DNA of 64,000 nt from Proteiniphilum sp. UBA4977 (GCA_002398565.1 DGZP01000039.1:31843-95842); one strand, 5' to 3'. Shown: positions 22,904-51,318, numbered from the stretch's first letter. Program-made: numbers and translations. Notes: generated from the letters alone by a model not told the origin.

Positions 22904-24688
22904 TCAATAATTTACACTTTCTAAATCCAATAATTTAGTATTGACTTTGCCTTTCATAATCACGTATTTACCGGGTTGAATGTGAAAATCAGTGAGATTT
23001 TTCTTCCTGTAAGCGTACAACTTATATTTATTTCCCTTATTTCGTTCAATAATGGAATAATTACCCTCGTCCCAATTTGTAAGTAAAATGCTCATTTTAT
23101 TTTTTGTTGTATGGTCAAGTTCCGTGATAACTCCCTCCTGCCGACCATCCCATTGATTCTTGCTATGCTTTACATTTGGGAGTATGGTTAGATGAAGTAT
23201 TCCATCAATTTCTTTTAGAAAATAAAGTCCAGTCCCATTGTATTTTACCAACGATGAATTACCAAGCCCAATAACTTCTTTTACATTCTCGCTTACATTT
23301 AGTGGATTCCATTTCGTTATGTCACCTGAATAATAAAGCCTGTTCAAGTCTGAATAAATGGCCACGTTCCTTTCTTTTGAGATGGCGTAATAATCCGTAA
23401 CCTGCTCATTCGGGGAATCCATCTCATAATTGGTGTAGAGCCTTGTCGATTTGAAAATTTCATTTGCGATGATGAAACTAGCAGCTTTACCCGGAGTGGA
23501 GGTTACACTTAGTACATGCGATCCGGATGAGTATGGACCATATACACTAAGCGAATAGGTCCACATTTGCGCTGCTTGTACTCCGAGCGCTCGAAAATAT
23601 TGAGCCTGTATTGGATATAAATACCTGCTCTGATTAAAAAAAGTCTCGAATTCATAGACAACCTTCGCTTTGTTCTTAAAAGCATCCGATAAAGCCCAGC
23701 CATAGCCAGTCACGTCGTTATAATAGGTTTTGAACCACTCGGAGAAGTCCGTTTCTGTCAAATCTTTCGGATTGCGCCCATAATTTTCACCTACCAAGTC
23801 TTGTCCAGGATAATTACACATCGCCACGACTTCAACATGAGAGCTTGCAACAGCACGGAAAACATCTTCGTGTTCGCGCATATAGCGGTGCCAGTTTAGA
23901 TTCCAGACAATTGGGTGTCTTGCTCCCGAGTCACGAATCAATTTATGCATCGTGTTGATGTAGTTACGCACAAGTTCCTCACGATATTCTAGATACGTTC
24001 GTTGATCTTCTTTTTTCCCTTTACCTTCTGCCCAAGATAAAAAGTCCTTGAAATAACCTGTATTTTTAATCTCATCGTAGGAATATACACTTGGTTCGTT
24101 CATGATCTCCCACATTGCAATATGCTTCGTCTCTTTATAGGTCACATTAAGATACGGGTTACTACGGTTTAGTAATTGCGTAATATAATTCTTCGTTTTT
24201 TCTACAACCTTCTTGTTGTGAATCCACTCTTCCCTATTTAACCCTACCCACATTGAGTTTGAGACATGTGCACTGCCCATGTGATTAATGAAAGCGAGTG
24301 TGACATAAATACCTCTTTCCGAGGCTTCTGCAATCATGTAGTCGAGTATATCGAGATAGATCGTTTCTACAATATTTCCCTCATGATCTACAAAATCTGC
24401 CGGTGTAAGGTGGCATCGTATTGAGTTGACGTGCATCAGTTCTAATTCCGTAAAACTTTCATCCGTCACTTTTTTCAATTCATTACTTGATAGTTGTACC
24501 CCAATTTTTTGCAGACGCTTATATTCCCAACTTAGATTCGGTTGGAAGTTGACTCCAAAAATTGCCATTTCTTTTCCGTCTGGCATATAAAGCTTCCCGT
24601 TTTTTGTATACGTATAATCTTGAGAAACGACTGGCTGTATACAAAGAAAAAAGACGAACAGAGAAAAGATAAATTTAAAATTGTTCAT
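22904..24688 (-). CDS. Secreted clan GH-A glycoside hydrolase (GH147/GH5-like)
   Basis: Signal peptide; IFGVNF, NPYLNVTYKE..IAMWEIMNEP (acid/base), VVYEFE (nucleophile), YP..AQYFRALG, TPGKA. Subfamily is from recall. Confidence 0.7.
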   Translation of the reverse strand: MNNFKFIFSLFVFFLCIQPVVSQDYTYTKNGKLYMPDGKEMAIFGVNFQPNLSWEYKRLQKIGVQLSSNELKKVTDESFTELELMHVNSIRCHLTPADFVDHEGNIVETIYLDILDYMIAEASERGIYVTLAFINHMGSAHVSNSMWVGLNREEWIHNKKVVEKTKNYITQLLNRSNPYLNVTYKETKHIAMWEIMNEPSVYSYDEIKNTGYFKDFLSWAEGKGKKEDQRTYLEYREELVRNYINTMHKLIRDSGARHPIVWNLNWHRYMREHEDVFRAVASSHVEVVAMCNYPGQDLVGENYGRNPKDLTETDFSEWFKTYYNDVTGYGWALSDAFKNKAKVVYEFETFFNQSRYLYPIQAQYFRALGVQAAQMWTYSLSVYGPYSSGSHVLSVTSTPGKAASFIIANEIFKSTRLYTNYEMDSPNEQVTDYYAISKERNVAIYSDLNRLYYSGDITKWNPLNVSENVKEVIGLGNSSLVKYNGTGLYFLKEIDGILHLTILPNVKHSKNQWDGRQEGVITELDHTTKNKMSILLTNWDEGNYSIIERNKGNKYKLYAYRKKNLTDFHIQPGKYVIMKGKVNTKLLDLESVNY

Positions 24689-24737
24689 TGGGAATATGAA
24701 ATAAACGTGAACGATTTATTTGACGTAAGAACCTGCA

Positions 24738-50124: not shown

Positions 50125-50292
50125 TCAAGTAGTTGTGAATTAAGTGCTAAGCCAGGGATTATATGTTTTGATTGTCAGGATTCTAGGTTTAACATAACAA
50201 TTGTATTAATTTCCAAAAAATCAAAACTTAATAGATTTGATAGGACTCTAACTCGCTATCTGATTTCTATGCATAACACTAAAATTACTTGA

Positions 50293-51318
50293 ATGAATAG
50301 ATTTTATTATAATTGCATCATAACATTATTAAGTATTTCTTCCGTTGGCTATGCTCAACAGAATGTTCTTGATTTGGCATCTAATGATTCTTTTACTATT
50401 GCAGTAATGTCAGACACACAATTGTACAAAGAAATAGAAATAGAGACTGAATCTGAATCAAATAATGTAGGAGAAATAACTAATGAGGTCTTAGATTCAC
50501 AAACACAATGGATTATTGATAATTTTGAAAATCAAAATATTATCTTTGTTAGTCACGCAGGGGATGTCGTTGATGTGAATTGTGAAAGTCAGTGGAATGT
50601 GGCAAAAAAGCTTTTAAATAGATTACATGGAAAAGTTCCATATGGTATTTCATTGGGGAATCATGACATGACTTCTACCGGTGATACCTATTTGTTTCAG
50701 GAATATTTCCCTGCTTCCATGTTTGAATCTTTTAATTGGTATGGCGGAAATTTTGAGAATAACACTAATAGTTACCAATTGCTATCTTCGAACGGTATTG
50801 ACATTATCATCATCCATATTGAATGTAATGCACCTGACCGTGTACTCAATTGGGCTAATTCAGTACTGGAAAAATATTCAGATCGTCTTGCTATTATTAT
50901 AACTCACATGTTTCTAGGTCCAAGAGAGACACCTGTTGAAGACACTGATTTTTATGATAAACCCAAAGGTATGATGAAATGGCATAAAACCTTTGGGAAT
51001 GAAGGTAACTCTCCTTATCAATTATGGAATAAATGTTTCAAGAAACATAGCAATATCAAAATGATTCTCTGTGGAGATCAAAGTAGAACGAATGCTTTGT
51101 ATCAGAAATACCTAGGCGAGAATGGCAATCTTGTCCATGTTTTTCTTAGTGATTATAACTTAAATCCAGGAGGAGGGCTGAGACTCTATAAATTCCAGCT
51201 TTCTGAGAATAGAGTTAATGTTATTACGTATAATACTATTGACGAGGCAATTGTGAAAAGTACAAGAATTGTTCCCAATTTTACAGAACATTGCCTGACA
51301 ATTACAGATTTTTTTTAA
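50293..51318 (+). CDS. Calcineurin-like metallophosphoesterase, secreted
   Basis: Signal peptide; SDTQ, GDVVD, GNHD, THMFL and a degenerate last motif CGDQ. Confidence 0.8.
   Translation: MNRFYYNCIITLLSISSVGYAQQNVLDLASNDSFTIAVMSDTQLYKEIEIETESESNNVGEITNEVLDSQTQWIIDNFENQNIIFVSHAGDVVDVNCESQWNVAKKLLNRLHGKVPYGISLGNHDMTSTGDTYLFQEYFPASMFESFNWYGGNFENNTNSYQLLSSNGIDIIIIHIECNAPDRVLNWANSVLEKYSDRLAIIITHMFLGPRETPVEDTDFYDKPKGMMKWHKTFGNEGNSPYQLWNKCFKKHSNIKMILCGDQSRTNALYQKYLGENGNLVHVFLSDYNLNPGGGLRLYKFQLSENRVNVITYNTIDEAIVKSTRIVPNFTEHCLTITDFF

Follow-up and report, generated by a model that had tools for sequence, protein, structure and literature searches.

Enzyme content is the main guide to the glycans that Bacteroidota eat by means of their polysaccharide utilization loci (PULs). 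For PULs carrying a glycosidase of family GH164, none of which has been characterized as a system, Armstrong et al. inferred a beta-mannan, glucomannan or galactomannan target; phosphatases are not mentioned in that study, and an arylsulfatase-like gene adjoins that of the founding enzyme Bs164, a characterized beta-mannosidase (PMC7105311). The presence of phosphatases in PULs has precedents elsewhere, and sulfatase-rich PULs offer a parallel. In MAN-PUL1/2 of Bacteroides thetaiotaomicron, the secreted phosphatases BT2630 and BT3783 are encoded beside glycosidases acting on phosphorylated mannan (Cuskin et al. 2015, PMC4978465), which indicates that the phosphatase content of a PUL can mirror substrate phosphorylation, and in Flavobacterium johnsoniae, low phosphate induces the Pus1 and Pus2 loci (PusCD systems), which are free of carbohydrate-active enzymes (CAZymes) and obtain phosphorus by importing phosphoinositol compounds (Lidbury et al. 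2020, PMC8115612; Connolly et al. 2026, bioRxiv 10.64898/2026.09.03.749221). Here, we analyze a 64,000-nucleotide stretch of DNA from Proteiniphilum sp. UBA4977 (GCA_002398565.1, DGZP01000039.1:31843-95842; hereafter the window, with positions counted from its first letter), in which positions 22904-51318 hold a 13-gene PUL, arranged divergently around a hybrid two-component system (HTCS) regulator, that joins a GH164 gene set to three phosphatase genes. This layout had been proposed from the nucleotide sequence alone (the sequence-only reading), and ORF listing together with Pfam and PDB sequence searches confirmed all 13 genes in their places.

Comparison of related loci shows that the link between the core of this PUL, a GH5-like/GH164/GH2 triad, and phosphoesterases is real and conserved. 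We consider it an even prospect that the locus degrades a beta-mannoside/beta-galactoside glycan carrying phosphate esters. Such a substrate is supported by the export signals and conserved catalytic residues of all three phosphatases, by the recurrence of non-orthologous phosphoesterases with core loci, by the retention of the histidine phosphatase in close relatives (3 of 3) and of the metallophosphoesterase in window-lineage loci (3 of 4, the window counted), and by the precedent of BT3783 and BT2630 (PMC4978465). A broader proposal, to which we give somewhat less credence, is that of a phylum-wide family of PULs, spanning genomes of 34%-64% GC from soil, sediment and host-associated Bacteroidota and dedicated to undescribed phosphate-esterified beta-mannoside/beta-galactoside glycans, in which at least 5 unrelated phosphoesterase families would play a sulfatase-like role.

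Phosphatases and glycosidases of the locus

The claim of the sequence-only reading that the locus encodes three unrelated, exported phosphatases proved correct at the family level (His_Phos_2, PhoA-type and Metallophos), and export signals, either for signal peptidase I (SPI) or as a lipobox, are predicted not only on these but on all 13 proteins of the locus. The histidine phosphatase (31402..32655, minus strand), predicted to be periplasmic, matches PF00328 and carries the RHGSR (residue 89) and HAE (residue 352) motifs of MINPP enzymes; with a match to BtMinpp (4fdt) at E = 8.6e-76, it can be assigned by sequence to the MINPP, or branch 2, histidine acid phosphatases. About 100 bp separate its gene from the glycosidase gene on either side. 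The alkaline phosphatase (48979..50124, plus strand; 381 residues, predicted to be periplasmic) matches PF00245 (E = 9e-76) and TAB5 alkaline phosphatase (2iuc, E = 4e-84), and has the sequence features of a PhoA-type enzyme, namely TDSAAG at residues 101-106 with the serine nucleophile, DGMG, DSGGH, DHETGG and SSHTG. It was also the sole protein, among eight of the locus scanned against NCBIfam, to give a match, which fell under the curated cut-off. On another contig of the genome (C90:79855-81726), a 623-residue paralogue, 55% identical over the PhoA domain and equipped with an extra domain, recalls the multi-domain PhoA1 of F. johnsoniae Pus2.

The metallophosphoesterase (50293..51318, plus strand; 341 residues, predicted to be periplasmic), whose gene is preceded by a 168-bp gap, is a divergent calcineurin-like protein. 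It matches PF00149 (E = 2.9e-7), and the residues invariant in its family (D41-x-Q43, GD91, GNHD122-125, H205 and GDQ261-263; alignment A2) include canonical motifs II-IV, whereas motif I reads D-T-Q and motif V reads G-D-Q instead of the DxH and GHxH of the calcineurin-like consensus. A PDB sequence search gave no match, and the protein was placed by fold search only: the top Foldseek matches of its AlphaFold model (pLDDT 91) are GpdQ (2dxl) and purple acid phosphatases, with TM of about 0.5. Family members 45-50% identical occur in Planctomycetota, Verrucomicrobiota and Latescibacterota. Judging from its conserved family motifs and its model, the protein is probably an active, divergent phosphoesterase and a candidate phosphodiesterase, predicted to act on diesters or monoesters. 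The 3.8-Mb genome encodes a single MINPP, a single member of this metallophosphoesterase family and three alkaline phosphatases; since both sole copies and one of the three alkaline phosphatases fall within 28 kb, and since the pairing recurs elsewhere, the clustering exceeds what chance would give.

Among the glycosidases, the GH164 enzyme (29279..31303, minus strand) matches Bs164 (6t5o) over residues 73-719 with E = 4.5e-199 (phmmer against the PDB), and its catalytic glutamate pair, NE154 and TE290, is invariant in a 12-sequence alignment (A1). Its sequence places it in GH164 as a predicted exo-acting beta-mannosidase. The neighboring GH5-like lipoprotein (27850..29265, minus strand; 471 residues, lipobox LLINC) matches PF00150 (E = 4e-10) and keeps WELWNE192 and E298 invariant across 14 orthologues (alignment A3); the best Foldseek match of its AlphaFold model (pLDDT 88) is the GH5 beta-mannanase ManDH5 (9gpg; E = 3.5e-29, TM 0.77), a structure crystallized with manno-oligosaccharides. 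With a modeled (beta/alpha)8 fold, an Asn-Glu acid/base and a Glu nucleophile, this protein qualifies as a beta-mannanase-like GH5 member and is predicted to be an endo-beta-mannanase. The GH2 protein (24738..27845, minus strand; SPI signal), a predicted beta-galactosidase, contains all five LacZ-type domains (Glyco_hydro_2_N, Glyco_hydro_2, Glyco_hydro_2_C, LacZ_4 and Bgal_small_N; E down to 8e-92), and its orthologues, 52-73% identical, adjoin GH164 in many loci. The last gene of the left arm (22904..24688, minus strand) encodes a 594-residue protein with an SPI signal and no Pfam match, which is nevertheless a mannanase-like, GH5-type clan GH-A glycosidase by its PDB matches (phmmer: 8gf3, E = 1.8e-9; 3pz9, E = 4.4e-8) and a canonical WEIMNEPS acid/base motif at 193-200; an orthologue in locus L014 is 73% identical. 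The GH147 label considered for this protein in the sequence-only reading found no supporting match; the PDB search returned GH5 mannanases only.

The same reading had counted five beta-glycosidases, one of which is doubtful. This protein, a GH39-like clan GH-A lipoprotein (32761..34149, minus strand; lipobox), has a weak PF01229 match (27.7 bits against a cut-off of 26) and altered catalytic positions: in an alignment with orthologues from L014, L026, L032, L069 and L072 (A6), the window lineage has VWSE and VWVVDNQ where distant orthologues have VWNE and WWSE, i.e., Asn to Ser in the NE acid/base motif and Glu to Asp at the nucleophile. The protein therefore lacks the NE acid/base and Glu nucleophile expected of GH39 and may be a noncatalytic surface binding protein or an altered enzyme, so that the set may consist of four glycosidases plus an altered or binding-only protein. 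Collectively, the proximity of the GH164 enzyme to Bs164 and of the GH5-like model to ManDH5, together with the GH5 mannanase matches of the 594-residue protein, indicate that the core points to beta-mannosides. As the sequence-only reading had also held, the Pfam content of the 13 genes includes no sulfatase, lyase or esterase.

Recurrence of phosphoesterases beside the GH164 core

The strongest single result for the pairing of glycosidases with phosphatases, as judged from gene content and sequence identity, is its recurrence in two deep-branching, high-GC loci (L110 and L111, 60-64% GC), which contain the histidine phosphatase homologues P0010 and P0015, 42-43% identical to that of the window. 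Both loci encode SusD, SusC2 (57-58% identical) and an extension-less SusC1 (44-45%, Plug and barrel only), the two SusC genes lying in tandem at L110:233-6230 and L111:148-6141, along with a divergently transcribed clan GH-A protein, MINPP, a short Metallophos protein, a LacZ-type GH2 (33%) and GH164 (36-38%). L111, unlike L110, has an alkaline phosphatase that shares 43% identity with that of the window, and a GH3 gene is present in L110 and was not seen in L111. These gene sets indicate that the triple-phosphatase design is not peculiar to the window genome. The short Metallophos protein is homologous to the Metallophos proteins of loci L028, L032 and L043 (E = 1e-27 to 1e-31). We also considered the first left-arm gene product of the two loci (501 and 522 residues) as a GH39-like protein; it has GNE and TE motifs, but the hhalign probability was 0.2 and no PDB link was found.

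Using alignment A1, GH164 loci were retrieved from genome contigs, and 80 of 214 loci were included in a census; many of the contigs are incomplete, and L028 carries frameshifts. As seen in tblastn searches and ORF maps, the core triad, often together with the GH39-like gene, is widespread in Bacteroidota, including Capnocytophaga, Draconibacterium, Prolixibacteraceae, Chitinophagaceae, Flavisolibacter, Coprobacter and others. In four such loci (L026, L028, L032 and L047), which encode a SusC sharing 45-46% identity with SusC2 and a SusD sharing about 35% with that of the window, the operon includes nonorthologous phosphoesterases: a 290-residue Metallophos protein after GH2 in L026, three Metallophos genes in L028, a fusion of Metallophos to a PQQ propeller plus two purple-acid-phosphatase-like genes in L032, and a purple-acid-phosphatase-like gene plus a PF04185 phosphoesterase in L047. 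A further locus, L043, has one Metallophos gene, fused to PQQ. Metallophos is the commonest accessory Pfam family in the 14 core loci, with 8 members among 67 ORFs, half of which (4 of 8) bear a purple-acid-phosphatase N-domain, and the families listed for a control sample of 121 ORFs, drawn from 51 GH164 loci in which the GH5-like gene is missing, do not include it. With an iterated Metallophos hidden Markov model, 9 of 67 core ORFs and 3 of 700 control ORFs were matched (Fisher, 3e-8), and likewise 5 of 14 core loci and 3 of 66 GH164 loci without the core (p = 0.003), although these p-values overstate independence, because the loci are phylogenetically related.

Close relatives of the window lineage retain the phosphatases to different degrees. 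In a congener (G015, about 35% GC), the gene order is SusC-SusC-SusD-BACON-metallophosphoesterase (70% identical)-HTCS-MINPP (66%)-GH164-GH5-like-GH2, followed by IS21; the alkaline phosphatase, the GH39-like gene and the second GH5 gene are missing from this locus. L014/L015 shows HTCS-GH39-like-MINPP (73%)-GH164-GH5-like-GH2-GH5 converging on the BACON gene, with no metallophosphoesterase between BACON and GH5 and no alkaline phosphatase. The metagenomic contig L109, which lies outside the MINPP region, is 99.5% DNA-identical to window positions 39022-48911, from SusC1 exactly to the last codon of the BACON gene; beyond this point, L109:9890-11040 corresponds to window 48912-51318 and contains no alkaline phosphatase but a metallophosphoesterase allele 71% identical in protein and 77% in DNA. 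Alignment of the two sequences thus places a sharp recombination junction at this point and presents the 3' end of the right arm as an exchangeable phosphatase cassette. Presence of the phosphatases in syntenic loci had been put forward in the sequence-only reading as decisive for its proposal; this is borne out for MINPP, kept in 3 of 3 close relatives with the left arm visible, and for the metallophosphoesterase, kept in 3 of 4 window-lineage loci with the window counted, but not for the strain-variable alkaline phosphatase (0 of 3 close relatives).

Outside these loci, the histidine phosphatase clade was encountered in L012:10001-16456, where two GH26 genes, a GH30 gene and two esterase genes lie divergent to that of a 55% identical homologue, another link of the clade to hemicellulose-degrading genes. 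Near three of four homologues 31-40% identical (G009, G017 and G028), no SusC-sized ORF was found, and the fourth (G017) gave only weak SusC/SusD-like tblastn matches. The window genome itself has a second GH164 gene (67% identical, truncated by the contig end) in locus L113 (contig C53:36-15000), where it adjoins a GH27 alpha-galactosidase and no phosphatase is encoded; ordinary galactomannan may thus be handled there, and the phosphatase-bearing locus may do something different. The other genes of L113 encode two xylose-isomerase-like TIM-barrel proteins, a LarA-like protein, an Nramp-type transporter and a weak ceramidase-like match.

Transport, regulation and extent of the locus

The right arm opens with two transporters about 34% identical to each other, SusC1 (38772..41612, plus strand), a TonB-dependent transporter that consists of Plug and barrel only, without the CarboxypepD_reg N-terminal extension, and SusC2 (41627..44773, plus strand), a canonical SusC-like protein with CarbopepD_reg_2 and Plug, followed after an 11-bp gap by a SusD-like lipoprotein (44785..46479, plus strand; SusD-like_3 and SusD_RagB, lipobox at Met24). 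SusC1 has a 68% identical orthologue in G015, and in G015, L109, L110 and L111 alike, an extension-less SusC of about 940-950 residues immediately precedes a canonical SusC accompanied by one SusD, which makes the tandem an old feature of this PUL type and not a local duplication. SusC2 and SusD of the window group with PUL transporters. In a SusD-anchored search of 400 genomes of the phylum, a SusD 35-40% identical was found in two genomes only, and the nearest relatives of the SusC2/SusD pair there (40% and 35% identity) head different PULs. In G319 (L101:1679-14509), the related transporters accompany five sulfatases with GH3, GH10 and GH29, and in G283 (L103), the locus begins with GH3 and GH9. 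SusC/SusD identity of 35-40% was accordingly discarded as a marker of this PUL type, the G319 relative being a different, sulfatase-rich PUL.

The HTCS (34408..38466, minus strand) comprises five Reg_prop repeats, Y_Y_Y, HisKA, HATPase_c, Response_reg and an AraC-type HTH_18, and has orthologues 74-81% identical in G015 and L014. From its adjacency, it presumably controls the locus, in which no recognizable phosphate-responsive regulator was found. The 786-residue BACON/GLUG surface lipoprotein (46558..48918, plus strand), with BACON, BACON_2 and Glug domains and a lipobox followed by acidic residues, was found only in the window lineage (G015, L014 and L109) and may be glycan-binding or an enzyme. 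Together with the SusC2/SusD pair, the co-location of five signal-peptide-bearing clan GH-A/GH2 proteins and an HTCS identifies the locus as a PUL.

In two of the long ORFs, the upstream extension is spurious. The signal peptide of the GH164 protein begins at Met47 of ORF 29279-31441, which puts the real start near 31303 and removes an apparent overlap with the histidine phosphatase gene; for the latter (ORF 31402-32730), the start is Met26, near 32655. The full ORFs of the GH39-like protein, SusC1 and SusD span 32761-34161, 38757-41612 and 44716-46479, respectively. With realistic starts, neighboring genes are separated by 4-105 bp in the left arm and by 11-168 bp in the right. Scans for sigma-70 promoters and intrinsic terminators gave counts equal to the shuffled expectation, so that they do not define operon limits. 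The flanks contain unrelated housekeeping genes (DHO_dh-like and DUF389 on the left, glyoxalase and cupin on the right), and Pfam detected no phosphatidylinositol-specific phospholipase C (PI-PLC) or inositol catabolic genes within or adjoining the locus. At 37.7%, the GC content of the locus falls below that of the whole genome (45.0%) and of the flanking parts of the window (45-47%). Next to the counterpart of the locus in the congener G015 come IS21 (IstA/IstB), an integrase of phage type and the reverse transcriptase of a group II intron. Given this composition and the mobile elements at the G015 locus, the PUL was probably acquired horizontally from lower-GC Bacteroidota.

Substrate, rival explanations and described systems

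If the substrate is a phosphate-bearing glycan, the surface lipoproteins (GH5-like, GH39-like, BACON/GLUG and SusD) would bind and cut the polymer, and SusC2/SusD, with the extension-less SusC1, would import phospho-oligosaccharides. In the periplasm, the metallophosphoesterase could open diesters or blocked phosphate groups, after which the MINPP-type and PhoA-type enzymes would strip monoesters, and GH164, GH2 and the second GH5 enzyme would finish the sugars, yielding carbon and phosphate; the HTCS would sense an intermediate. The sequence-only reading had likewise proposed a phosphorylated or phosphodiester-bridged beta-Man/beta-Gal glycan, a notion that gains comparative support from the distant core loci and from L110 and L111, whereas its named candidates, yeast mannan and glycosyl inositol phosphoceramide (GIPC), do not match the encoded enzymes. 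Yeast alpha-mannan can be set aside because the alpha-mannan machinery (GH76, GH92, GH38, GH99 and GH125) is absent from the locus. Plant GIPC is disqualified as well, since its head groups contain alpha-linked sugars and neither an alpha-mannosidase nor an alpha-glucuronidase is encoded in the locus. Candida phospholipomannan or acid-labile beta-1,2-mannosides are conceivable substrates; they fit less well, since they would need no endo-mannanase-like enzyme and since the spread of the family in soil and sediment bacteria suggests a more general substrate.

Several observations weigh against a phosphate-bearing glycan. We know of no phosphorylated beta-mannan or beta-mannoside polymer that would fit, and the substrate is thus hypothetical. 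MINPP and PhoA enzymes are generalists, and BtMinpp, the homologue of the window's histidine phosphatase, is a phytase. G015, L014 and L109 all lack the alkaline phosphatase, the last of them being 99.5% identical to the window in DNA from SusC to BACON. In 9 of the 14 distant core loci, several of them on incomplete contigs, no phosphoesterase lies within 10 kb of GH164, although one of the nine, L016, has an alkaline phosphatase at the contig edge. The core versions of Capnocytophaga and Draconibacterium carry GH16 or GH3 instead, and some core or related loci carry sulfatases. A PF00884 sulfatase stands directly beside GH164 at L027:2160-3656, L030:604-3087 (with a formylglycine-generating enzyme also in L030) and L043:5665-7056; taken with the phosphoesterase neighbors, this suggests that GH164 loci often include enzymes that remove anionic esters. 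Finally, orthologues of the metallophosphoesterase (52-61% identical) occur in three CAZyme-free loci (L106, L107 and L108) of the composition ECF-sigma/FecR-SusC-SusD-(small fn3)-metallophosphoesterase. A beta-propeller phytase (PF02333) adjoins two of the three (L107 and L108), and two of the three contain a further Metallophos or purple-acid-phosphatase-like gene, purple-acid-phosphatase-like in L108. By gene content, these loci look like Pus-type systems for scavenging organophosphate or phosphorus (PMC8115612; bioRxiv 10.64898/2026.09.03.749221), so that the right-arm phosphatases of the window may represent a phosphorus-scavenging module added to a carbohydrate PUL.

This last idea, in which the PUL targets a neutral beta-mannan-type glycan and the phosphatases, perhaps with SusC1, harvest free organophosphates, for instance phytate or phospholipid head groups, from the same plant or microbial material while the glycan itself bears no phosphate, is in our view possible but doubtful. 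The CAZyme-free orthologous loci, the homology to BtMinpp, the recombination-prone cassette formed by the alkaline phosphatase and metallophosphoesterase, and the core loci devoid of phosphoesterases all speak for it, and the proximity of a MINPP homologue to GH26 mannanases and esterases in L012 could make the link to mannan an ecological one. Set against this, the enrichment of phosphoesterases is specific to the core PUL type and not seen in other GH164 loci, and up to three phosphoesterase genes lie between same-strand glycosidase genes (L028 and L032), which would be costly for a side activity. The regulator is an HTCS, with no recognizable phosphate-responsive regulator in the locus, and the second GH164 beside GH27, where phosphatases are missing, would offer galactomannan a natural home; passages describing the characterized Bacteroides ovatus galactomannan PUL name GH26 and GH36 enzymes and no phosphatase (PMC5217682). 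An improbable alternative is a system for inositol-phosphate glycans (GIPC, glycosylphosphatidylinositol or fungal phospholipomannan), in which the metallophosphoesterase would act as a diesterase resembling GIPC-specific phospholipase C (GIPC-PLC), MINPP would remove the inositol phosphate and the glycosidases would trim the sugars. The MINPP family does act on inositol phosphates, phospholipomannan would provide beta-mannosides, and in F. johnsoniae, a calcineurin-like enzyme of Pus1 has been proposed as a GIPC-PLC, with PusD1 binding inositol phosphate (bioRxiv 10.64898/2026.09.03.749221). In fungi, GIPC-PLC is an enzyme of sphingomyelinase type (PMC11496612). Against this alternative, the Foldseek search with the model of the metallophosphoesterase pointed to GpdQ and purple acid phosphatases, with no sphingomyelinase among the top 50 matches. 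The plant Series A GIPC head group, Man-GlcA-Ins-P (PMC11496612), would call for the alpha-acting enzymes that the locus lacks, just as it lacks PI-PLC and inositol catabolic genes, and a GH5-like endo-mannanase implies a polymer rather than a short head group.

A further idea, which seems very unlikely, is that the phosphatase genes are unrelated neighbors that arrived by chance or through a recent insertion, are regulated separately and contribute nothing to the PUL. The strain-specific alkaline phosphatase at a recombination junction and the gap ahead of the metallophosphoesterase gene would agree with it, and the promoter and terminator scans are uninformative on the point. Nevertheless, the pairing recurs in genomes of 34%-64% GC with both orthologous and nonorthologous phosphoesterases, the histidine phosphatase gene is closely framed by glycosidase genes, and the genome's only MINPP and only metallophosphoesterase of this family are both in the locus. 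If the phosphate does reside on the glycan, the locus points to an unrecognized phosphorylated polymer and to new dephosphorylating accessory enzymes, including a divergent metallophosphoesterase family widespread in Planctomycetota and Verrucomicrobiota; should the phylum-wide family be real, it would imply a new natural polymer or a new mannan modification and a combined route of carbon and phosphorus acquisition. If it does not, the locus would show that carbon-foraging PULs can be wired to organic-phosphorus scavenging, linking PULs to PusCD systems. In either case, GH164, an orphan family, and the GH5-like protein conserved beside it gain a testable biological context.

In the literature searched, no characterized system matches the repeated association of beta-mannan-type enzymes with several phosphoesterases, in line with the sequence-only reading, which knew of no characterized PUL of this design; phosphatases inside PULs and the Pus loci were already known. 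The locus shares with the GH164 PULs of Armstrong et al. (PMC7105311) the combination of GH164 with GH5, GH2, SusC/SusD and an HTCS, and our searches recovered Capnocytophaga loci (L016 and L017) with GH164-GH5-like-GH2 and GH16; beyond this plan, the window locus encodes MINPP, alkaline phosphatase, metallophosphoesterase, a second SusC and the BACON/GLUG protein. MAN-PUL1/2, by contrast, target alpha-mannan with GH92 and GH38 alpha-mannosidases and endo-alpha-1,6- and endo-alpha-1,2-mannanases, none of which is encoded in the window; there, BT3783 was compared with tyrosyl-DNA phosphodiesterase, and the Man-1-P linkage is cut by GH38 (PMC4978465). The three phosphatases of the window belong to families other than those of MAN-PUL1/2. 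Its histidine phosphatase is of the same family as BtMinpp (BT4744-type; PDB 4fdt/4fdu), with the same RHGxR and HAE motifs, but the window clade and its 42-73% identical relatives sit in glycosidase operons, whereas the BtMinpp-like homologues examined, P0009 and P0016, are solitary among housekeeping genes. Like the F. johnsoniae Pus loci, in which SusCD-like transporters accompany periplasmic phosphomonoesterases and phosphodiesterases, including calcineurin-like and PhoA enzymes (PMC8115612; bioRxiv 10.64898/2026.09.03.749221), the window has a SusCD pair with an alkaline phosphatase and a metallophosphoesterase downstream of SusC-SusC-SusD-BACON. Pus loci lack CAZymes, whereas the window locus is rich in them, is centered on an HTCS and has SusC2/SusD transporters of the PUL group; with five glycosidase-type genes and this regulator, it is classified as a PUL rather than as a Pus system.

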